IMG/VR virus record: IMGVR_UViG_2909314774_000001
Reading direction: 5' to 3' (one strand)
Origin: a virus
Taxonomy: Duplodnaviria; Heunggongvirae; Uroviricota; Caudoviricetes
Length of the DNA stretch: 64,000 nt
A program made the position numbers and the translations under genes. Positions within the stretch are counted from its first letter, which is position 1. Each line of letters opens with the position of its first letter. The notes beneath the pieces were generated by a model. It saw only the letters and a list, made by a program, of their open reading frames with translations. It made no database searches and was not told the DNA's origin. Shown piece by piece: positions 20,030-55,362 of this stretch.

Positions 20030-20551
20030 TTATTCTTCGAACAATTTTTCGATAGATTTTGTAGGATAGAACAAAGAACGCTCGTTGTTACCAACCAGCT
20101 GGATAAAGCCTAAACTTTTATAAAACGCCTTGGCTTTGTCATTTAACGCCTCAACGAAAAGTCCATGAATGCCTACAGCAAGAGATGCATTGTACACAAC
20201 GCGCATTGCATGTGTTACAAGCATTGAGCCAAATCCTTGACCTTGAAGGGACTTGTCCAAAGCCAGCCTACCCAAAGTAACACTTGGAACATTCCGATAA
20301 GGAACCTTCTTTTGTTTGCTTCTTGAAGGTAAGGACTCCTTTTCAAAACAACTACCTGACAAAGTGTAATATCCTAACACTTTTGGCCTTTCTTCTTGAG
20401 TGCAAAGCACATAAGCACGAAGAATTTTTCCCTCATGCTGCCTTTTTAAGTGGTTGGCTAAAAAGGCGTTTAGTGACTCTTCGCCGCAATCAAAACCGTT
20501 TAGATCATAATCTTTCTCTCCAGAGAAAATCTCTATCGTTGTATTGCTCAC
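20030..20551 (-). CDS. GNAT-family acetyltransferase toxin (TacT/KacT/AtaT-like)
   Basis: 173 aa with GNAT acetyl-CoA binding signature (LALDKSLQGQGFGSMLV); immediately downstream (8-nt gap) of a DUF1778-type RHH antitoxin gene. Confidence 0.75.
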   Translation of the reverse strand: MSNTTIEIFSGEKDYDLNGFDCGEESLNAFLANHLKRQHEGKILRAYVLCTQEERPKVLGYYTLSGSCFEKESLPSRSKQKKVPYRNVPSVTLGRLALDKSLQGQGFGSMLVTHAMRVVYNASLAVGIHGLFVEALNDKAKAFYKSLGFIQLVGNNERSLFYPTKSIEKLFEE

Positions 20552-20558
20552 GAGTAAA

Positions 20559-20828
20559 CTACTCCATGCTTTTCAGACGATCAGCAGCTCGTTTCAGCTT
20601 GTCGTTCGGTGCCGGAGGATTGCTTATAGCGTCCATAACCAGATTCCAGGATTCTTCATTCAGAACTAGTCTACGGTGTTGCTCTATAACTTTCACGGCA
20701 CGTTCAGATGCACTGCTAACCATAAACTGAGTAATGCTCTGGTTAGACATTGCGGCAGCTTCCTCGATGATGCTTTTATCGTCATCGGTTAATCTCAAAT
20801 CGATGCGCTGCTTTTTTAGTGCTGACAT
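20559..20828 (-). CDS. RHH antitoxin (TacA/KacA-like, DUF1778)
   Basis: ~89 aa from MSALKKQRIDLRLTDDDKSIIEEAA (AGGAGG RBS 6 nt upstream); N-terminal ribbon-helix-helix and C-terminal PAPN-type tail typical of antitoxins paired with GNAT toxins. Confidence 0.7.
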   Translation of the reverse strand: MSALKKQRIDLRLTDDDKSIIEEAAAMSNQSITQFMVSSASERAVKVIEQHRRLVLNEESWNLVMDAISNPPAPNDKLKRAADRLKSME

Positions 20829-21146
20829 GTATTCCTCCTGATGGCCGTGATGTAGGAAGGCCATCAATCTCCTCTGTTCAAACTGAGTTTTCGACTCAAA
20901 AATTACTTTAAAAGGCTATAGCCCATTACGTGTGCATTATCAAATTGTGTACGGCATATCACCGTACTTGTAATATAGAGGTCATTGTTACTTTTTTCAA
21001 CAGACAAATACAAGCTATGATTGCCAATTGTTAATCACAACCTACCATTTAACCTTTACACCGCAGCCGTAGGCATTTAGGCTATATCACATATAAGAAA
21101 ACAAGTTGTTTCAGACGATAATTATATACGCAAAGGGAACTCTCCA

Positions 21147-21815
21147 ATGACCAAGATCTTTGTGGTTGGCGGCACAAAGGGCGGGCCTGGCAAATCCACC
21201 GTTGCCCAGCAAATTGCCGTTTGCCTGAAAGTCAAAAAGAAGAAGAAGGTTTATATTACCGATATAGATATTCAGCGCACGACAACGAGCTGGTGTGAAG
21301 ACCGTCGACAGAACGAAGACCTTGAGCTGATTCCTTTTGCATACGTTCAGGATGACATCATTAAGCACCTAAAATCGCTTCAGGGTAGAGCTGAGTTTGT
21401 AGTGGTAGATGCCGGTGGCTTTGACTCCGAAATTCAGCGACAAGCGATGCTGATGGCTGACGTTATCATTATCCCGCTTCGTCCTAAGCGTCGTGATTTG
21501 AAATCTCTGCGTGACATTGATCCTATTATCGACAATGTTCGTAATGTAAACGATAAAGTGAAGGTCCGCGCGGTCATGAACCAGTGCCCGGCTTTGCCAT
21601 CACAAGTGTCTCGCATTCTGGCGGCTAAAGAGATTGTCGAGACGTTTGGCATCGAGTCTGCGCCAGTCAATCTATATAACCGCAACGTCTATGATGATGC
21701 GGAAGAGTCTGGTCGTTCTATCTTTGAAATGACCGGTAGCGAGCGCGACAAAAAGGCGGAAGCCGAGTTTGAAGAATTTGTAGATTATCTGTTGAGTCTG
21801 GAGGAAGAAGAATAA
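21147..21815 (+). CDS. ParA-type partition ATPase (small, deviant Walker A)
   Basis: VVGGTKGGPGKST deviant Walker A (KGGxGKS/T), 222 aa, followed by an overlapping small RHH protein. Confidence 0.8.
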   Translation: MTKIFVVGGTKGGPGKSTVAQQIAVCLKVKKKKKVYITDIDIQRTTTSWCEDRRQNEDLELIPFAYVQDDIIKHLKSLQGRAEFVVVDAGGFDSEIQRQAMLMADVIIIPLRPKRRDLKSLRDIDPIIDNVRNVNDKVKVRAVMNQCPALPSQVSRILAAKEIVETFGIESAPVNLYNRNVYDDAEESGRSIFEMTGSERDKKAEAEFEEFVDYLLSLEEEE

Positions 21816-22174
21816 TGTCCATGAAAATGGGTGACCTAGCAAAGCGCAAAGAGCCTGATGCACCGGCTAAGAACACAACTCCTTTGCGCCAACCAGTCAG
21901 ACCACAGGGACGCCCGACTCGTGGCAAAGAGAAAATTAAAAGCCGCACAATGTCACTGGAGGACGAATACTTCGAACTGCTGGAGATGATGAAGTTCATC
22001 CCTCGCTTCGAGAAATTCACCCGCTCTGATGTGATTCGTGCTGCTATTTTCCATCTTGCGGAGAAGACACCGCAGGAAATCGAGGACATCGTGAAACTTA
22101 ACGAGGCGATCACAGCTGCCGATGTCACGATGCGTACCGATGAAATTAAACGCGAGTTGATGAAGAAAGGGTGA
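21815..22174 (+). CDS. small centromere-binding partition protein (ParG-like RHH)
   Basis: 119 aa, start overlaps ParA stop; unstructured basic N-terminus and C-terminal RHH-like segment (SLEDEYFELLEMM...RSDVIRAAIFHL). Confidence 0.55.
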   Translation: MSMKMGDLAKRKEPDAPAKNTTPLRQPVRPQGRPTRGKEKIKSRTMSLEDEYFELLEMMKFIPRFEKFTRSDVIRAAIFHLAEKTPQEIEDIVKLNEAITAADVTMRTDEIKRELMKKG

Positions 22175-22225: not shown

Positions 22226-23932
22226 ATGGAATCGATAGAAGTATTTTTAAAAAATTTTTTGGACTCAGATCATCGGGTTGCTGTCATAAAAGGAAATTGG
22301 GGAGTAGGTAAAACGCATTATTGGAATAGCTTTTATACTAAACATTCTAAAAAATTAGATTTTAATGCATATTCATATGTTTCTTTGTTTGGAATAAATT
22401 CTATTGGAGACATTAAAAAAGCTCTTTATCATTGTGCCACACCAATTAATGAAAAGAAATATAAAGAACTGATTTTATCTGAAACGGATCGAACTATGAT
22501 TCGTTATAGAAATGGGTTTTGGGGATGGTTGAAATACAACTCCTTGTCAAAATTTTTAATACATTTTGGAAAGAACGATTTTTTTGGGTTCAAAACTGAT
22601 AATCTGCTGTCATCTCTTGAGTATAAATTTGTTAATAATTATTTGGTTTGCATTGATGATATTGAACGAAAAGGTAGTGCGCTAGAAATTAAAGAGATTA
22701 TGGGGGTAATTGATGAGTTGGCAAGAAGAAAAAATTGCAAGGTTGTTCTAATATTAAATGAAGATAACTTACATGAAGAAACTGCACAACAACAGTTTTT
22801 AGAGTATAGAGAAAAAATAATTGATGTGGAAATAAAATACGATCCCACGCCTGAGAAAAACTTAAGAAAAGTTTTTTATGAGACTGACCCTGATTTTCTT
22901 TTGTTAAAAAACCTAGTAAATGATTTAAACATCAAAAACATTAGAATATTAAATAAAATAAAATCATCTCTAGTTATATTTAGAGATGTGCTAAAGTTAG
23001 CAGAGGATAAGGTTAGAGAAAGTTTTATTAATAGATTGGTCTTATTTTCAGTGGTTTACTATTTTGGTGTTCCTAGCGTTGATTATGCTTCATTTAAGGA
23101 GTCAATCAAAAATATACATGCATTCGACTATATGTTAGATGATAAAGATGAAAAGGAAGAAGTTAACTCTGTATATTCATTTGTTAATAGCCTTGATGTT
23201 ATTTATGAACGAGCAGAAAGTGCTTTCGATGATGATATAGATTTTTACCTTAAGAACGGTTATGTTTCTTCTGAAAGCAATATTCTAAATATAATAAAAG
23301 AAAAAAATGAACAATATAGAGATAATAGGGTTTTATGTGAGGTTTATAAAATTTGGGATGTTTTTAGAAACTCTTTTAAAGATAATGAATCAGAGTTTAT
23401 TTTTCAAATTGAGCGCGTAATTAACGATAGTCTGTTGCGTATACCAATTGGACAGTTCGTAGGTTTAATAAATGTCCTAATTAAATTGGATAGAGATTGT
23501 AATAATATTATAGAGGCATATGCAGATGCTTTTGTTAATAAAGAAAATGCGTATGCTACATTTAATTCTTTGCGAGTAGAGATCTTCGGAAATGAAGAAT
23601 TAGGTTTCAGAATTGAAAAAAAATTGAAAGATAGAAATCCAGATGACTATAACTTAGATAAAATTATAAAAAAAATAGCTGGTGGAAGATTTAACCATAG
23701 TGATGTGAATATTCTTAACAGTTTTTCTAAAGATGATTACGTAAACTGGATATTATCCTGTGATCAGGATGCTTTGAATTTAGTAGAAGAGACTATGCTC
23801 AAGTTCAAGGGTATGCAACACCCGACAGACGAACAGAAGAGCATCACTGATAAAGCAATAGAAGCTTTGGAGGAAGTTGCTTCAAAATCAACACTTAATA
23901 AGCTGCGTGTTAATAAAATACTCAATCATTAA
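22226..23932 (+). CDS. KAP-family-like P-loop NTPase in low-GC cargo region
   Basis: Walker A GNWGVGKT at residues ~23-30 and Walker B-like LVCIDDIER ~110 aa downstream (KAP NTPases typically hhhhDDLDR); gene is markedly AT-rich, with Asn/Lys/Ile-rich codon usage unlike its neighbours. Confidence 0.55.
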   Translation: MESIEVFLKNFLDSDHRVAVIKGNWGVGKTHYWNSFYTKHSKKLDFNAYSYVSLFGINSIGDIKKALYHCATPINEKKYKELILSETDRTMIRYRNGFWGWLKYNSLSKFLIHFGKNDFFGFKTDNLLSSLEYKFVNNYLVCIDDIERKGSALEIKEIMGVIDELARRKNCKVVLILNEDNLHEETAQQQFLEYREKIIDVEIKYDPTPEKNLRKVFYETDPDFLLLKNLVNDLNIKNIRILNKIKSSLVIFRDVLKLAEDKVRESFINRLVLFSVVYYFGVPSVDYASFKESIKNIHAFDYMLDDKDEKEEVNSVYSFVNSLDVIYERAESAFDDDIDFYLKNGYVSSESNILNIIKEKNEQYRDNRVLCEVYKIWDVFRNSFKDNESEFIFQIERVINDSLLRIPIGQFVGLINVLIKLDRDCNNIIEAYADAFVNKENAYATFNSLRVEIFGNEELGFRIEKKLKDRNPDDYNLDKIIKKIAGGRFNHSDVNILNSFSKDDYVNWILSCDQDALNLVEETMLKFKGMQHPTDEQKSITDKAIEALEEVASKSTLNKLRVNKILNH

Positions 23933-31636: not shown

Positions 31637-31711
31637 GATGGTGTAGCTCAGCGGTAGAGCAGTTGGCTGTTAACCAACTGGTCGGTGGTTCGAATCCACC
31701 CACCATCGCCA
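31637..31711 (+). tRNA. tRNA-Asn (GTT)
   Basis: Hand-folded cloverleaf: acceptor GATGGTG/CACCATC, D-arm GCTC-AGCGGTA-GAGC, anticodon arm GTTGG-CTGTTAA-CCAAC, T-arm GGTGG-TTCGAAT-CCACC, encoded CCA. Confidence 0.85.
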
Positions 31712-31716
31712 ATTTA

Positions 31717-31803
31717 GGGGAGTTAGTCCGTAGGGGCAGCGGGGTAGACTGTAAATCTACTGTCATTGCGACTCGGGTGGTTCGACTCCATCACTCCCCA
31801 CCA
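31717..31803 (+). tRNA. tRNA-Tyr (GTA)
   Basis: Acceptor GGGGAGT/ACTCCCC, anticodon arm GTAGA-CTGTAAA-TCTAC, long variable arm, T-loop TTCGACT, encoded CCA; resembles E. coli tRNA-Tyr. Confidence 0.8.
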
Positions 31804-31807
31804 AATT

Positions 31808-31883
31808 GCCGGTTTAGCTCAGTTGGTAGAGCGCCTGCCTTGTAAGCAGGATGTCAGCGGTTCGATCCCGTTAACCGGCACCA
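31808..31883 (+). tRNA. tRNA-Thr (TGT)
   Basis: Acceptor GCCGGTT/AACCGGC, D-arm GCTC-AGTTGGTA-GAGC, anticodon arm CCTGC-CTTGTAA-GCAGG, T-arm AGCGG-TTCGATC-CCGTT, encoded CCA. Confidence 0.8.
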
Positions 31884-32203
31884 ACACAACAGGTAAGAGC
31901 ATTGGGCGAATCGGCGATACTGACCACAAGCCCGTAAATCGATAGAGTCAGACCAGTGCTCTTACCGTTGTGAGGAAGTGCAGCTCTTTGAAGCAACCAG
32001 AAGATAAGCATCTGGCTTCACAACACAACGATAAGATCATTACGGTTAATCGTCGTTCATGTGCACAATGACTGGTCGAAAGGTAGTGATCTTACCGTTG
32101 TGATGAATGCACAGGCTGATGTGCCGCAACTACAGTAGTGCGCGCTTTGCGGGGCTTGCTACAACCCTGTGTCGGAGTTCAGCACCGACCATCACAATAG
32201 CTG

Positions 32204-32290
32204 GAGAGTAGGGAGCATGGTGCTCAAGCGGTCTTGAAATCCGTCCCATTGTGCAAACGATGATGGTTCGATTCCATTACTCTCCGCCAG
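32204..32290 (+). tRNA. divergent tRNA-Ser-like gene (anticodon TGA), possibly degenerate
   Basis: Acceptor GGAGAGT/ACTCTCC, T-arm GATGG-TTCGATT-CCATT and CCA end are good; anticodon loop CTTGAAA as in tRNA-Ser(UGA), but the D-arm and anticodon stem fold poorly. Confidence 0.45.
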
Positions 32291-48363: not shown

Positions 48364-49437
48364 ATGGCAAAAGGAAAATCCGCACTGGCACTTGCTCTGA
48401 AAAAGAAAATCGGTAGCAACGACGAAATTCAGAAAGTAACTCATTGGATTGATACAGGCTTTCCACCGTTAAACAAAGCTATTTCTGGTCGTTACGATGG
48501 CGGCTTCCCATGTGGTCGTATCGTCGAAGTATTCGGTCCTCCAAGTGCAGGGAAAACGTTCCTTGCAACAGCAGCGATGATCTCCGCTCAAAAACAAGAT
48601 GGTCTGGCGGTATTCCTCGATCATGAAAACAGTTTTGACGTTGGCCTGGCTGTAGCCAATGGCCTGAACGCAGATGAGGATGACGGTCAGTGGGTATACA
48701 AGCAGCCAGATACCTTCGAAGACTCTGTAGAGTTGATCGGCACAATACTTAAATTGGTTCGTGATGAAGAGCTTATCCCCGAATCAGCACCTATCTGTAT
48801 CGTGGCTGACTCTCTTGCGTCTATGGTTCCGAACTCCAAAGCCGAGAAGTTCGAAAAGATGGCTGAAGGCACTGCCAAAGACAAAGATCAGCTAAACATG
48901 AACGACAATACGGCACTGGCTCGTGCGACGAGTGCGAACTTCCCTACTCTGGCTTTGTGGGCACGCAAATACAACGCCTGCATCATCTTCTTGAATCAGG
49001 TTCGCACAAAAATCGGTGTAATGTTTGGCGACCCTACTACGTCGCCAGGTGGAGATTCACCGAAGTTCTACGCTTCTGTACGTATCCGTCTTGGTGCATC
49101 GGTGATGAAGGATGGTAAAGAGAAGATCGGCCAGGACGTAGGCGCAGAATGCATCAAAAACAAAGTTGCACCACCGTATGGCAAATGCACCTGGAAATTC
49201 TACTTCGATCCTACTCGTGGCCTCGACGTTATCGAATCGCTCGTCGAGTACATGCTGGAAGAAGGATACCTGCCAAAGAACGCCAGCGGGCGAGTTGAAA
49301 TTGGTGACAAGAAATACACCAAATCGCAGATCGTTGAGATGTATCGGGAGAAGCCACTGGCTGAAATCATTGCGGCTTTGCAGGCAATCGACGACCGAAG
49401 AGCAAAAGACAACCCCACCGAGTCAGTAGAAGAGTAA
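48364..49437 (+). CDS. RecA/UvsX-like recombinase
   Basis: Walker A GPPSAGKT and RecA-fold core (VFLDHENSFD, IIFLNQVR); 357 aa; followed by intrinsic terminator 49441-49468. Confidence 0.7.
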   Translation: MAKGKSALALALKKKIGSNDEIQKVTHWIDTGFPPLNKAISGRYDGGFPCGRIVEVFGPPSAGKTFLATAAMISAQKQDGLAVFLDHENSFDVGLAVANGLNADEDDGQWVYKQPDTFEDSVELIGTILKLVRDEELIPESAPICIVADSLASMVPNSKAEKFEKMAEGTAKDKDQLNMNDNTALARATSANFPTLALWARKYNACIIFLNQVRTKIGVMFGDPTTSPGGDSPKFYASVRIRLGASVMKDGKEKIGQDVGAECIKNKVAPPYGKCTWKFYFDPTRGLDVIESLVEYMLEEGYLPKNASGRVEIGDKKYTKSQIVEMYREKPLAEIIAALQAIDDRRAKDNPTESVEE

Positions 49438-50564: not shown

Positions 50565-52230
50565 CTCCCCTAAAAAGTTCAGGCGTCCAGTTGGACGCCT
50601 TTTTTATCGCAATTATCTTATTAAGAAAACAATTTGTTTAAAAGGATAAGAAAACATGACAACTATTAAGAAACTCTACGATGCCGCAAACGTGGCTCTG
50701 GATGTTATTGATGATGAAGTAGCAAAAGGCTTTCCTGAACCTGATTGGGCGCATCAGCTACGAAACGCTATCGCAGAAATGACCCCACCAGATCCAACCC
50801 CCGACGAGACAGACTGGCAGCGATTCATCCGTATGTACGCTCAGGAAATAGGTCCAACGCCAACGGCAGAGCAGGCAATGCTGCTGAAATACTTCAAAGA
50901 GGCGGGAGAGGATTTACCAATTGATGACTCAGCATATTGGTTCCACTGCGCATGGCGTAAGTATGACGTGATATTCACACAAGGCATGGGAAGCAAAGAT
51001 ATGGTTGTGTGGCATCTACTCCATATAGACACAGCCGTTGACAGAGTTATTGAACAGTTTTTCCCTAAACAAGAAGATTGATCGCCTATTCATAACTAAC
51101 AAAATAAGTAAACACTAACCACAAAAGGAAAAACACATGAGAGTTTTAGTTCGAATCGTTACCAGCACTGTCTATGACGTGTTTCCGCTTTTTATGGTCA
51201 AAGCCGATGGCCTTAACGACGAAGAAACTGACGCGCTGATCCAGCGTATTCTCGTTGAATATACAGGTCATGACGCTGATTCAGTGATGGTTGATGATGA
51301 TGGTGTTTGTTGGCATAACGGCAACTGTTGGTACGTAGAAGAGACTCAACAAATCAGTGATGAAGATGCCGAACATCTTGAGCGTATTTTAAGCATCAGC
51401 ACTTTTGAGTGAGTTTACAGTAAAATTTATATAAGTTAGTATCTACCTATCATGAAGATTTTTATTGAATACTTGTTACTCATCGTTTCAATAGCTTTTG
51501 TCATCGACTGCATTTTCACTGGTGTCATTCGTAAAGTCTTTTCCCCGGTGCACGACGTAGTCATAAACGCTTTGGCTATCGTGCTCGTATTTAATTCAGC
51601 ATTTGATGTAATCAAAGAGGTGGCAGCATGAAGGCCATCCCATTCGCGCTGTTGTTCCTTTCTTCGATCGTTGTGGCCGACACCACTGTTTATCAGTGTG
51701 AAATGTCTGTAGCCGACGTTAAGAATGGCGCTCTTACCGACGTCATAAAAGCACCATATGGAGCGATGGTCGTAGACAGCGGCGACCAGTTCTATGTTGT
51801 GCGTGACGATCGAGTGTTGTCATCCCCATATCTCACAAATCGTAATGGCAAATTAACCGGCGTCGGAGAAGACCACTTCGTATACAACAAATACAAGGGC
51901 TTCTATGGCGTTCACGCTTCTCAGCAAAGCTACCTTTTCGATGACTGCAAGGAGGTTGGATAATGGCATTAACACTGGCAGGTCTGGAAATCGAGAAAAC
52001 AAGCGGCTACTGGCGTGCTAAGGGTTTCAAGCAGCCTGGCATTCTTGAGCGTCTGGAACGTGAAGATGGGTATATCGTCCACCAGCGGCGTGAATGGCGT
52101 ATGTACGATCCAGAAACAGGAAAACTGACTACAAAAGCCGGAACACTTTGGGGTCTGTTGAAGAAAATTCACTGATAACACCAACCACTGCGGTGAGTAG
52201 TCTGCTCACCGCATTCGTATCCAGCTCATT

Positions 52231-52662
52231 ATCCACTGTAGTCAGTAACAAAACCTTCCTACATATCTGCTAACCACTGTAGCGAGTAGACAGCCTTTCA
52301 TTCGCATCAAACAACCACTATGGTGAGTATTGGAGTGAGATGTCCAGCGGGTATCCACTATGGTGAGTAAGCCTTTGCTGTTTTCAGTGGATATCCACTC
52401 GCCACAGTGGATACGCTCAAAGATGAGGGCGACAACAACCACTATAGACAGTAAATTTTCCAAGATACCCAGTGACCACTAACCTCGCAGCCCTTGTTTC
52501 ATCAGTGTTAGTGATCACTAACATTTAATTCAGTATTTGCATTCTACTGCCTACAGTGGTTATCAACAGATAACGATACTCACTATAGTGGATAGCGAAT
52601 TACAGATATAAGTAAGGCTCACTACAGTGGATAGTGAGCCTTACTACTAACTACAGTGGTTG
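52231..52662. repeat. iteron array downstream of repA (incA-like), both orientations
   Basis: About nine copies of a ~19-bp unit with core CCACTRTAG / CTAYAGTGG (e.g. ccactgtagtcagtaac, ccactatggtgagta, cactatagtggatag, ctacagtggatag) plus palindrome GTGGATATCCAC at 52387-52398. Confidence 0.8.
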
Positions 52663-52664
52663 GG

Positions 52665-53720
52665 CTATTTGCGAGTCTTTGCCTTGCGCAACTCTTCGAG
52701 AAGCGCCAGTTCTTCTTTACTCAACATGACCATTTTGCCTTCTTTTTCGTCAGGCACAACGTCGATAATGTCATCTTGATTCTCATCTGGGAGGCTATAT
52801 TCCGTCTCATCATTATCGATTTTTGTTGATATTTGTGCCTGGCGTAACTTTGGCCGCCTATAGTGGATGACGAAGTAGACCGAGTTTCCGCGCTTAACTT
52901 CCGTGTAATCGAGATATCCTATCTCTCGCAGCTGTTCCATAGCCTTTCTTACCGTCGCATTCTGAGTAATAGTGCGACTTGTCAGATTAAGTCTGGCGCG
53001 TAAACGGGCTAGTGATATTGGTGCCGGATCAGGCGGCAAACTTTCAATAAAAGTATAAAGCGCCTGAGCGGATTCTTTTCTTGAGAGTTCGTTTATAGCC
53101 CGGAGTTGCAGAAGAACCTTTTTGTCGAACTGGTAGAGTTCGAAAATCTTGGGATCTGCTTTCAGTTCGACCGTATCGTGCTTGACACTATATTTTGCCG
53201 TTTGCACAAGATGCGTTACGTAAAACTCATCAGAGCCTTTGCTACGGAACGAGATGGTATTTGTGGCAATACGGCTTAGCGAACTGTCCAGGCGTTTGCG
53301 TAACTTCGCTGATGACCTGGCGGTCGGAATGCCACACAGCCTTACAAACTCAACGAACGGCAATGTGACAGTATCGCCAACGACCTTGTGTTTGGCAAAC
53401 GCGTGGATTATTCCCACCCACGTTTTAAAGTCGTTATCCATATCAAGCCGAAGGCCAGAGATCCTTATGTCTTCGTACCCTTCGGCTTTTGCCAGAGACA
53501 GCTGTTTGAGTTCAGCAGAGGCATCCATAGAGACCATTTGCCCCTTTCTTCCTCTGGATGTCGATTTCAGCGTCGGAACGAAGAGGCCCAGACGCATCAA
53601 AGCAACAGGCTGAACAGTGTTATTAGTGTTAGGAACCAACGTAACAACTTCGCCTGTCTTTTTATCTGTTTCTGAAAATGCTTCAACGATCGCTATGTTT
53701 TTATTGCCGTTTTCGCTCAT
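52665..53720 (-). CDS. repA: iteron-binding replication initiator (RepA-like)
   Basis: 351-aa ORF flanked on both sides by arrays of its likely binding sites and adjacent to DnaA boxes and an AT-rich stretch; call is from context, I cannot verify the family by sequence. Confidence 0.6.
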
Positions 53721-53764
53721 TCCAAATGTCTCTTGTTATTCGACGGCTTTGGTGGCCTTTGCTG

Positions 53765-53888
53765 ATTACAGTGGATAGTAGCACTCATCACAGCGGTTAT
53801 CCTACCGTCTATAGTGGTTTTTCTCCTCTCTATAGTGGTTGCTTTGCTCCCTATAGTGGATTATTCGCTCTCTATAGTGGATATCGAT
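53765..53888. repeat. origin iterons immediately upstream of repA
   Basis: Five to six direct repeats spaced ~21 bp with core CTATAGTGG (gtctatagtggttt, ctctatagtggttg, ccctatagtggatt, ctctatagtggata). Confidence 0.8.
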
Positions 53889-53995
53889 CATGTCTGAAGG
53901 CAGATGGCACAACGGTTTGAGGTTGGCGGGGATCTTATTGGGTCTTTATGGGTCTCTTTGGTTCTCTTTGTGATCTGAATTACTGGATCGGGCCT

Positions 53996-54051
53996 GTGGA
54001 TAAAAATCAGAGGATTTCAAGAACAGGTAACTCTACTCTTCTGTGGATATT
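53996..54051. promoter_or_regulatory. DnaA boxes in AT-rich origin region
   Basis: TGTGGATAA (53996-54004, perfect DnaA box on opposite strand) and TGTGGATAT (54043-54051) between two iteron arrays; a third iteron array (CTCTACAGTGG-like, 5 copies) lies at 54161-54270. Confidence 0.6.
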
Positions 54052-54462
54052 TAAGGACATAAGAATCATGACTAAGAGTAGAGTTGAGATATATCTATGT
54101 ATATCAGTATGTTAATGAAGAATTAAGTCATTAAGTTATCCATAAAAGACAATGTGCTCTACTCTCTACAGTGGATATATACAGCTCTCCAGAGTGGTTG
54201 TTTTACTCTTCATAGCGGTTATTCAGCTCTCTACAGAGGTTTCTTTGCTCTCCATAGTGGATGGCAACACCCTTTCAGACCAGTAACCGCAACGGCTAGA
54301 GGCGATCGGGGATCTCTTTGGATCTTCTATTTGATCTTACTTGGGATCTCTTATTTGGATCTATCCAGTGGATAACTGGGATAAGTAAAACAGGCAAATG
54401 CAGATTAAGGTATGCCTAATGAGTTATCGTAGCATCGGCCAATAACTACTGAAAAAACGATT

Positions 54463-55107
54463 ATGGATCTAAAACGCACGCGCTGGGTTCGTCGTCTTGA
54501 GGACGGCTCCTACACTATCGAATCAAATTCCAACCTGAATAAGCAGAAGTTACTTTGTGATATCTGCGGTATAGCGGCGAAGTGCCCGATCTACGAAACC
54601 AGAATTAAACTTGATAAGGCTGGTGTGAACTTTCATTTGAATAGTTGTATCAGGTACGTTCCATTGCTCGCATTTCGTAAACCGATCATCGGATTGGATG
54701 CGCCCTACTTCAACACACTCCGTTCAGGAGTAACGTGGCGAGATCGTTTATCACCAGACAAACTGATTTGCCTTGTATCCGCAGATACAGGAAAAATCAT
54801 TCGTTTTGGGAAAGTAGACAAGGTTTACTCAGGCCCAGTTGACGAGATGTTGCGGAAACACAGCCGGTTTAATCACCTCTGCATGGGTGGTGAGAAAATC
54901 GAGAAGGTTGAAGAAGTGATCCGCAAATCCTACGGACACTTCCTGACCAAAGATAGCCTGCTCACTGCAATCTACATCAGACATGTAAAACGTGAGTTCG
55001 ACCTTGAATACCATAGCGAAGAAGAACTGAACCTTGTCGATCCACGTCCTAAAGCTGGCGTCATAAGCATAAATGCAGCGCGTAAAAAGCCCACTGACGC
55101 GCTGTAA
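54463..55107 (+). CDS. hypothetical protein
   Basis: 214-aa ORF next to the replicon; Cys cluster CDICG...C near N-terminus. Confidence 0.35.
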   Translation: MDLKRTRWVRRLEDGSYTIESNSNLNKQKLLCDICGIAAKCPIYETRIKLDKAGVNFHLNSCIRYVPLLAFRKPIIGLDAPYFNTLRSGVTWRDRLSPDKLICLVSADTGKIIRFGKVDKVYSGPVDEMLRKHSRFNHLCMGGEKIEKVEEVIRKSYGHFLTKDSLLTAIYIRHVKREFDLEYHSEEELNLVDPRPKAGVISINAARKKPTDAL

Positions 55108-55362
55108 CCCTCCAGATCGTATATTGGCGTAGATAGAATCTACGCCCCCTCAAAATAGCTCTCATAGCGTTCTACAGTGATCCTGTCTTATTTTTAGTCA
55201 TACAGACAAGCAAAGTTGCGCCACGATAAATAGGTATATACTTACTTATAAATTTTTGTATATTAAGGCGCTCGTTTCATTCCTAACATACCGTTATGCA
55301 TAGTTGTTTACCTCCTCATTGCTCTTAGAATTTGTATCAAAATAACCACAAAGGAAAAACAC

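Follow-up and report, generated by a model that had tools for sequence, protein, structure and literature searches.

A theta-type, iteron-controlled plasmid-maintenance replicon of an SSU5/pLF82-like phage-plasmid, belonging to the RepFIB/P1 RepA family, was recognized with a probability of about 0.93 at approximately 52183–54375 of the window (the whole 64-kb stretch of viral DNA that was analyzed). The complete origin core of this replicon, comprising a DnaA box, GATC repeats and an iteron array, occurs twice in tandem upstream of repA. The initial annotation had confined the replicon to 52231–54270; this extent was revised since each upstream iteron array has its own GATC block and DnaA box, which had gone unnoticed earlier. 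The positions of the features are given in Table 1.

Table 1. Replicon, partition and toxin–antitoxin features identified in the window
Feature	Position	Strand	Remarks
GNAT acetyltransferase toxin	20030–20551	-	Pfam Acetyltransf_1/7
TacA-type antitoxin	20559–20867	-	Pfam TacA1, 8.6e-26
ParA, small Walker-type, 222 aa	21147–21815	+	Pfam MipZ, AAA_31, CbiA, ParA
ParA partner, 119 aa	21815–22174	+	
Downstream control iteron array (incA / RepFIB E–K equivalent)	52183–52661	mixed	12 RepA-site cores (predicted)
Downstream inverted cores (five)	52353, 52313, 52272, 52231, 52183		
Downstream mixed-orientation cores	52437(-), 52402(+), 52382(+)	mixed	
Downstream cores adjoining repA	52551, 52583, 52622, 52651		orientation as in upstream arrays
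repA, RepFIB/P1 RepA family	52665–53720	-	351-aa Rep_3-family iteron initiator; ORF and Pfam
Perfect iteron core inside repA coding sequence	52858–52868	+	encodes conserved IHYRRP motif
Proximal iteron array (incC / RepFIB BCDD'D'' equivalent)	53760–53882	+	6 units, 21–22-bp phasing; cores 53766–53882
Proximal GATC / 13-mer-like repeat block	53886–53989		4 GATC: 53886, 53931, 53972, 53986
Perfect DnaA box TTATCCACA (TGTGGATAA on plus strand)	53995–54003	-	283 bp upstream of repA ATG
AT-rich spacer between both origin cores	54004–54155		GC 0.275–0.325 in 80-bp windows
12-bp inverted repeat in spacer	54029–54040 / 54073–54084		
One-mismatch DnaA boxes in spacer	54042–54050 (-), 54136–54144 (+)		
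Distal iteron array	54160–54262	+	5 units, 21–23-bp phasing; cores 54166–54262
Distal GATC-repeat block	54304–54361		6 GATC in 58 bp, GGATCTnTTT-type units, ~11-bp spacing
Distal DnaA box TTATCCACT	54367–54375	-	one mismatch from consensus

Affiliation of the Element

The window is an SSU5/pLF82-like phage of E. coli with a low-copy plasmid lifestyle. It showed 97–99% colinearity with Cyrano (= pLF82), an Escherichia phage and phage-plasmid of the SSU5 supergroup, whose annotation includes tail and lysis genes together with genes for ParA, an integrase, a repressor and the replisome, and it combined colinear structural, lysis and recombination genes with plasmid replication and partition genes, as is characteristic of this supergroup. 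The 2.35-kb replicon locus had an identity of 99.6% to Cyrano and 99.8% to IncFIB-typed E. coli plasmids, and more than 150 near-identical E. coli plasmid records, each covering at least 80% of the query, were found; the identity of the replicon region to SSU5 was 75–83%. The one plasmid record examined, pEHP91H1-1 (identity = 99.8%), was typed as IncFIB and non-mobilizable. Cyrano has been published as an episome present in 5.5 copies per cell and giving ciprofloxacin-inducible virions (PMC9928086), which bears out the initial view of the element as a low-copy plasmid prophage; the placement of the replicon inside a phage genome was likewise confirmed by the colinearity with Cyrano. The ParA gene and the toxin–antitoxin pair that had been reported along with it were both recognized by Pfam, the latter as a GNAT toxin and a TacA antitoxin, and the 119-aa ParA partner, putatively a ribbon-helix-helix protein, gave no Pfam match.

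IncFIB is the typing of SSU5-supergroup phage-plasmids (PMC7969092), and IncFIB(pLF82-PhagePlasmid) is a type assigned routinely. The replicon described here is this already catalogued IncFIB phage-plasmid iteron replicon, so the finding is already known, and its recognition only confirms that the window is an SSU5-like phage-plasmid. No experiment on exactly this replicon was found in the literature searched, the early pMT1 papers lying outside its reach. SSU5-like phage-plasmids are tracked with this replicon as a standard typing target; their hosts include E. coli, Shigella, Salmonella Typhi (pHCM2) and Yersinia pestis (pMT1), and resistance genes are present on some of them.

The repA Gene and Its Product

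The minus-strand gene initially described as RepA-like encodes a protein in which two Rep_3 domains scored above the Pfam cutoffs, namely, Rep3_N (WH1; PF01051) at residues 115–225 (42.2 bits, cutoff 22.4, E = 1.3e-10) and, by a marginal pass, Rep3_C (WH2; PF21205) at residues 236–281 (22.6 bits, cutoff 21.1, E = 1.3e-4). Comparison with Rep_3, RepFIB and P1 RepA, which had been proposed as a check, revealed homology to all three; identity was 91% to the RepA of pMT1/SSU5, 61–66% to classical RepFIB RepA and 47.5% to P1 RepA (residues 40–293, E = 1e-71). The family alignment contained 90 invariant columns, and the ATG codon of repA aligned with the CTG codon that experiments have identified as the start of P307 RepA. 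No family was matched in the NCBIfam scan of RepA, and searches of the PDB returned nothing at E <= 1 with phmmer and nothing at E <= 10 with hmmsearch using an 8-member RepA profile; the single-sequence AlphaFold2 model had a pLDDT of 38.8 and was unusable for fold comparison. Judged from its primary structure, the family membership of RepA can be regarded as already settled by Pfam and by the P1/RepFIB homology.

The identity of repA was 94–97% at codon positions 1 and 2 versus 66% at position 3, a pattern that indicates strong purifying selection on the gene. The Shine-Dalgarno sequence of repA is weak (tttGGAatg). The FIB replicon of F itself functions poorly owing to a weak ribosome-binding site (PMC11983097), and the similar signal found here would fit an inactive relic of the same kind, with the element being maintained otherwise. 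That the replicon is such a relic is nevertheless extremely unlikely: it would have to be reconciled with the selection acting on repA, with the conservation of iterons and cores across genera, with IncFIB being the sole typed replicon of the near-identical plasmid record examined, and with the stably episomal state of Cyrano (PMC9928086).

Iterons and Origin Elements

The iteron core CTAYAGTGGWT was searched for, with at most one mismatch, in the 64-kb window and in 100 shuffled sequences. There were 22 matches versus 2.54 ± 1.73 in the shuffles, none of which reached 22. Nineteen of these matches were located within 52231–54262, and all 13 perfect cores of the window fell within 52231–54176. 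The consensus of the iteron unit, derived from 24 sites, was TaCTCnCTAcAGTGGaT (about 17–19 bp); these 24 sites surround repA, so that directly repeated sites adjoin the rep gene, as in Rep_3 replicons.

The five or six direct iterons of ~21 bp first noted before repA were found to be six units. This proximal array ends 46 bp from the repA ATG and is presumably the repA operator; its identity to the SSU5 and L012 lineages was 86–90%, compared with 65–66% at the third codon positions of repA. The only promoter-like minus-strand match in the intergenic region (53887–53860, 9 of 12 positions) overlapped the iterons. The promoter scan as a whole gave 7 sites against 4.5 ± 1.7 expected, which is within chance, and autoregulation of repA via a promoter inside the iterons is therefore proposed by analogy. 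The terminator scan was also within chance, and an Rfam search of 51500–55200 returned nothing at E <= 1, giving no sign of antisense-RNA copy control.

Downstream of repA, the mixed orientation of the iterons was as initially described, but the array contains 12 cores starting from 52183 instead of about nine starting from 52231. The palindrome GTTAGTGATCACTAAC (52506–52521) was examined as a possible additional operator and rejected as a conserved feature, the corresponding sequences of SSU5 and pMT1 being non-palindromic. The core located inside repA was kept in SSU5 and pMT1; it was not accepted as a regulatory site, since its conservation is inseparable from the constraint that the invariant HYRRP motif places on the coding sequence, which may account for it. 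A role of the iterons as a partition site was rejected as well, because their position on either side of a Rep_3 gene is that seen in P1/RepFIB and because ParA is ~31 kb away.

The 742-bp intergenic region contained four DnaA boxes with no more than one mismatch versus 0.23 expected. One of them is among the only two perfect DnaA boxes of the 64 kb; its presence had been noted correctly, although at 53996–54004, i.e., one base off. The AT-rich spacer with DnaA boxes was found as expected from the initial annotation and had an identity of 62–64% to SSU5 and L012, corresponding to an approximately neutral rate of evolution. A third iteron array, previously assigned to 54161–54270, does exist (82–86% identity to SSU5 and L012), but it is part of a further, complete origin core that ends at 54375. 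No GATC cluster in the window is denser than the distal GATC block in this core (Poisson about 7e-7). The block shares homology with the Dam-site repeats of P1 oriR, aligns with the P1 oriR, F-type FIB, pKpn-type and Pantoea cores, and has an identity of about 79% to the single origin of SSU5-like phage-plasmids of Klebsiella.

Duplication of the Origin Core

In the nhmmer search against the family origin-core profile, the distal core scored 94 bits and the proximal core 62 bits. Both were 76–94% identical across the window, SSU5 and L012 lineages, and nucleotide comparison indicates that both are under purifying selection. Two cores were found in 40 of the 80 surveyed RepA loci, and the duplication is shared by a large clade of RepFIB-like replicons; the proximal-position core alone was present in 27 loci, as well as in P1 and F-type FIB, and the distal core alone in 11 loci, with proximal iterons still adjoining repA.

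The odds are about even that replication starts from the distal core (54160–54375) and that the proximal one is a decaying duplicate, whose iterons would serve mainly as operator and handcuffing partner. Consistent with this, the distal core has kept all six GATC sites and is the higher scorer, whereas three repeat units of the proximal block are altered (GATCC to GAACC or GACCC), and the proximal copy scored below the distal one in every surveyed double-core locus except L060. The retention of proximal iterons beside repA in the 11 loci with a distal core alone points in the same direction, as does the one origin present in sister lineages of the SSU5 group (pKpn type, PhiR41_1), which is ~79% identical to the distal DnaA/GATC segment of the window and adjoins the same ASCH-like gene. 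Evidence against decay of the proximal core is that it is the only one of the two to have a perfect DnaA box, that it has a P1-equivalent distance from repA (DnaA box to repA start, 283 bp versus 277 bp in P1) and that a core at this position is sufficient in the 27 loci, P1 and F-type FIB mentioned above. Moreover, despite the loss of three GATC sites, no other non-coding segment is as well conserved between the window, SSU5 and L012 as the proximal core (86–94%, the GATC block likewise 86–94%), which argues for retained function.

A functional two-origin or origin-plus-pseudo-origin system, in which the distal GATC-rich copy would fire under Dam/SeqA control and the proximal copy would be repurposed, appears rather unlikely; under such an arrangement, the proximal copy may serve as an operator insensitive to Dam, as a partner for handcuffing in cis or as an alternative origin. 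The double core was also found in Pantoea and Erwinia, on contigs that are 200–800 kb long and are not phages, and thus the duplication is no phage adaptation. No description of the double-core arrangement was found in the literature searched, which did not extend to the original pMT1 papers, and it may already have been described. The conserved double core is a potential natural test bed for iteron handcuffing and Dam/SeqA sequestration with two cores in cis. It is also relevant to the design of curing cassettes, which perform best with control iterons alone (PMC11983097).

Proposed Mechanism of Replication Control

The mechanism outlined below has been demonstrated in the literature for P1 and RepFIB. 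By homology with these systems, RepA monomers would bind the ~19-bp iterons that recur upstream of repA with a phasing of 21 bp, and host DnaA would bind the adjoining DnaA box; together, they would open the nearby GATC-containing 13-mer-like repeats, which would allow loading of the host replisome. RepA bound to the proximal iterons would repress its own promoter, and the 12 downstream iterons would titrate RepA and, through it, handcuff the origin iterons, so that initiation would stop as the copy number climbs. Re-initiation would be delayed by Dam methylation and SeqA at the GATC repeats. ParA and its partner would segregate the copies, and toxin–antitoxin pairs would penalize their loss. 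We infer from the same homology that RepA of the window binds the iterons of the window and that the replicon depends on Dam, SeqA and DnaA.

Another reading considered was that phage replication in the lytic cycle is also driven by this RepA/iteron replicon, as a whole or from a single core. The element has replisome genes of its own (as in Cyrano, helicase, primase, Pol III alpha, ligase and SSB), the inspected portion of Cyrano carries no annotation of a separate initiator for the lytic cycle, and two cores of differing GATC content could in principle allow two modes of use. At the same time, lytic replication of P1, the closest of the phage-plasmids studied so far, has a replicon of its own, a textbook fact that counts against lytic replication driven by RepA; iteron handcuffing serves to limit the copy number, and the double core is shared with the non-phage contigs of Pantoea and Erwinia. 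A lytic role is considered quite improbable.

Comparison with Known Replicons

The P1 oriR/incC-repA-incA style attributed to the region initially proved to reflect homology beyond analogy, as follows from the RepA identity and from the nucleotide alignment of the core. The parts follow the same order in both systems (DnaA box or boxes, GATC (Dam) repeats, iterons, repA, downstream array), with five or six 19-bp iterons in 21-bp phasing, and the DnaA-box/GATC core of the window aligns at the nucleotide level with the left half of the annotated P1 oriR, which includes DnaA sites and five Dam sites. P1 incA contains nine iterons, direct and then inverted (3 + 6), whereas the 12 of the window are arranged as four direct, three mixed and five inverted. 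The systems also differ in the iteron sequence (GATGTGTGCTGGAGGGAAA in P1, TaCTCnCTAYAGTGGWT in the window), in the number of origin cores (one and two, respectively) and in the ~60-aa acidic/helical C-terminal tail of the window RepA, which P1 RepA does not have. In P1, par adjoins incA, in contrast to the distant ParA of the window.

The origin core of classical RepFIB (P307, F, pO157) is homologous to that of the window. The FIB model, with origin iterons and a DnaA site upstream and control iterons downstream, has been supported experimentally (PMC11983097). Classical RepFIB differs from the window in its iteron (ATAARCTGTRG), in having only one origin core (−334 to −221), in the start codon (CTG in P307, ATG in the window) and in its location on conjugative multi-replicon plasmids instead of a phage.

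The closest systems are pLF82/Cyrano, pHCM2, SSU5 and pMT1, typed as IncFIB(pLF82-PhagePlasmid) or IncFIB(pHCM2), from which the window has only allelic differences. The double origin core is also present in SSU5 and pMT1, with all GATC positions of the window kept and most iteron positions shared. The downstream cores are kept in both as well, although the arrays differ by insertions or deletions of whole units (12 sites in the window and about 13–14 in SSU5 and pMT1), and the proximal DnaA box, perfect in the window, is TTATACACA in SSU5 and pMT1.

Identity of the Element and Its Plasmid State

The 2.35-kb replicon locus was 99.6% identical to that of Escherichia phage Cyrano and 83% identical to that of Salmonella phage SSU5; the remainder of the window was colinear with Cyrano (97–99%). 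At least 80% of the query locus was covered in 157 plasmid records, the best-matching plasmids being those of E. coli, E. albertii and Shigella (100–125 kb, 99–99.8% identity). Detailed examination of a single record, pEHP91H1-1, showed it to be typed as IncFIB only and non-mobilizable. Cyrano and pLF82 are both 108,379 bp, and the Cyrano annotation includes tail, lysis, integrase, repressor, replisome and recombination genes. The paper naming the phage equates Cyrano with pLF82 explicitly and describes it as episomal, with 5.5 copies per cell and a 39-fold increase in virion production under ciprofloxacin (PMC9928086). IncFIB is the type given to SSU5-supergroup phage-plasmids (PMC7969092), the SSU5 replication gene is included in typing tools (bioRxiv 10.1101/2025.09.12.675607), and the type name IncFIB(pLF82-PhagePlasmid) appears in thirteen papers. 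Maintenance as a low-copy plasmid prophage, as proposed in the initial annotation, is supported by the published episomal state and typing. The feature is an already known one: it is the IncFIB replicon carried by SSU5/pLF82-type phage-plasmids, a member of the RepFIB/P1 RepA family; the initial observation is confirmed and its interpretation as a P1-style plasmid replicon is supported.

Iteron Arrays and RepA

Repeats with the core CTAYAGTGGWT were found on both sides of repA (region ~52180–54380), as initially described. The 64-kb window contained 22 core matches with at most one mismatch, whereas its dinucleotide-preserving shuffles (n = 100) contained 2.54 ± 1.73, none reaching 22; the excess of repeats is not due to chance. 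Nineteen of the 22 matches were located within 52231–54262, and all 13 perfect cores of the window within 52231–54176. The iteron unit was ~17–19 bp (TaCTCnCTAcAGTGGaT, 24 sites aligned), and the sites formed three arrays and one isolated site (see the table). From repA outward, the downstream array comprised four sites oriented like those of the upstream arrays, followed by three mixed and five inverted sites.

The isolated core was conserved in SSU5 and pMT1 and absent from F-type and Pantoea genes; this core may represent an additional RepA site or a mere by-product of codon choice. A perfect 16-bp palindrome with a central GATC, GTTAGTGATCACTAAC, was detected between two downstream iteron groups, and its equivalents in SSU5 and pMT1 were not palindromic; a related motif, GGTTAGTGGTCACTGGGT, ~30 bp away was invariant in the window, SSU5 and pMT1.

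Profile comparison upheld the assignment of the gene as RepA-like (Pfam Rep3_N, 42.2 bits, and Rep3_C, 22.6 bits, with curated thresholds of 22.4 and 21.1, respectively). The protein was 91% identical to the RepA of pMT1 and SSU5, 61–66% to its RepFIB counterpart in F-type plasmids and 47.5% to P1 and P7 RepA (residues 40–293, E-value 1e-71). The eight-member RepA alignment contained 90 invariant columns, and P1 RepA lacked the ~60-residue acidic/helical C-terminal tail. The ATG at 53720 aligned to the CTG codon at which classical RepFIB RepA begins; this start has been experimentally mapped and is often mis-annotated (PMC11983097). Neither sequence nor profile search revealed a PDB match for RepA, and its single-sequence AlphaFold model was unusable.

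Features of the replicon and other loci of the window
Feature	Coordinates	Strand	Description
GNAT toxin	20030–20551
TacA antitoxin	20559–20867
ParA	21147–21815		MinD/ParA/MipZ families
ParA partner	21815–22174		119 aa
KAP-family P-loop NTPase	22226–23932	+	568 aa, directly after ParA pair
tRNA genes	31637–32289	+	Asn-GTT, Tyr-GTA, Thr-TGT, Ser-TGA
RecA-like recombinase	48364–49437	+	uninterrupted, 357 aa
70-aa protein gene	51963–52175	+	annotated 'P1 Cra / Cre-associated'
Downstream array	52183–52661		12 sites
Palindrome	52506–52521		16 bp
repA	52665–53720	−	351-aa ORF
Isolated perfect core	52858–52868	+	inside repA, over invariant IHYRRP motif
Proximal array (cores)	53766–53882		6 units, 21–22-bp phasing; ends 46 bp before repA ATG
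DnaA box	53995–54003
AT-rich spacer	54004–54155		GC 0.275–0.325
Inverted repeat	54029–54040 / 54073–54084		12-bp arms, 32-nt loop
Distal array (cores)	54166–54262		5 units, 21–23-bp phasing
Distal GATC block	54304–54361		6 GATC in 58 bp
214-aa protein gene	54463–55107	+	ASCH domain per Cyrano annotation; no Pfam match here

Duplication of the Origin Core

Four DnaA boxes (at most one mismatch) were present in the 742-bp intergenic region, with 0.23 expected. The box reported initially exists, but its position was one base off (53995–54003 here); the AT-rich spacer was found as described. A separate GATC-repeat block and DnaA box accompany each upstream iteron array, an arrangement that the initial annotation had overlooked, and the two 260-bp modules (53745–54010 and 54125–54385) were 77% identical when aligned. 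The distal GATC block is the densest GATC cluster of the window (Poisson ~7e-7), and the proximal block retains four GATC, with three units altered from GATCC to GAACC or GACCC. An Rfam search of the replicon region revealed no RNA element. The spacer carries a perfect inverted repeat (AACTCTACTCTT / AAGAGTAGAGTT).

Both cores were present in SSU5, pMT1, L012 (a third E. coli lineage) and Pantoea plasmids. Between the window and SSU5/L012, identity was 86–94% in the proximal DnaA/13-mer block, 86–90% in the proximal iterons, 76–78% in the distal DnaA/GATC block and 82–86% in the distal iterons, with 62–64% in the spacer and 65–66% at repA third codon positions. By these sequence comparisons, both cores show constraint, and the spacer taken whole evolves at an approximately neutral rate.

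An nhmmer profile built from the origin core was run on 80 RepA loci of different species, two of which were not assessable. Two cores were found in 40 loci, including non-phage contigs of 200–800 kb, a single core in the proximal position in 27 (an arrangement shared by P1, F-type FIB and the pKpn type), and the distal core alone in 11, where iterons next to repA were nevertheless kept. From this survey, the duplication is old and clade-wide rather than an adaptation of this phage. The chances are about even that the distal core is the firing origin and the proximal iterons serve as the operator: within the clade it is always the distal copy that is kept, and this copy outscored the proximal core in every double locus but one (94 and 62 bits in the window), whereas the perfect DnaA box belongs to the proximal core, which is highly conserved and occupies the P1-like position. 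The searchable literature, which does not include the original pMT1 papers, contained no description of a functional division between two cores. In sister SSU5-group lineages, the single origin was ~79% identical to the distal DnaA/GATC segment of the window. The distal DnaA/GATC core only, with iterons still beside repA, was observed in RepA loci of other Enterobacterales (L023, L025, L031, L046, L051, L056 and L058), which may be natural examples of origin/operator separation.

Partition, Toxin–Antitoxin and Neighbouring Genes

The partition and toxin–antitoxin genes expected from the initial annotation were recovered as ParA and a GNAT–TacA pair; the partner of ParA, putatively of the ribbon-helix-helix type, had no Pfam match. 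A HicAB pair annotated in Cyrano would, by colinearity, lie at ~44.4–45.3 kb. The segment 22175–23936, which holds the KAP-family NTPase gene, is missing from Cyrano, where a different hypothetical gene stands, and looks like a variable cargo slot, possibly defence-related. Two small conserved genes (70 and 214 aa) flank the replicon in every SSU5-group element examined, and the start of the latter adjoins the distal origin core.

The RecA-like recombinase gene of Cyrano and pEHP91H1-1 is 2340 bp (779 aa, labelled LAGLIDADG family homing endonuclease by PGAP); the window lacks exactly 1263 bp of it (1190–2452 of comparison sequence L001) and appears, from sequence, to carry the intein-free allele of an intein-bearing gene. 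tRNA-Tyr is extra in the window, because the Cyrano annotation gives only Asn, Thr and Ser.

Comparison with the P1 and RepFIB Replicons

The P1 oriR annotation comprises tandem DnaA sites, five Dam sites and five incC iterons containing PrepA, followed by repA and nine incA iterons. The DnaA/GATC blocks of the window aligned at the nucleotide level with the P1 oriR segment, as well as with the counterparts of this segment in F-type RepFIB, Klebsiella pJN2-26, E. coli PhiR41_1 and one Pantoea plasmid. The proximal DnaA box is 283 bp from the repA start (277 bp in P1), and the direct-then-inverted pattern of P1 incA (three direct and six inverted iterons) recurs downstream in the window. Because core alignment, DnaA-box spacing and incA orientation agree, the proposed oriR/incC–repA–incA likeness to P1 reflects homology and not just analogy. 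In RepFIB, experimental evidence supports an origin consisting of the upstream iterons and a DnaA site, while control of replication falls to the downstream iterons, which act by handcuffing and constitute the strongest incompatibility determinant (PMC11983097). By homology, this model of an upstream origin and downstream control iterons would transfer directly to the window locus.
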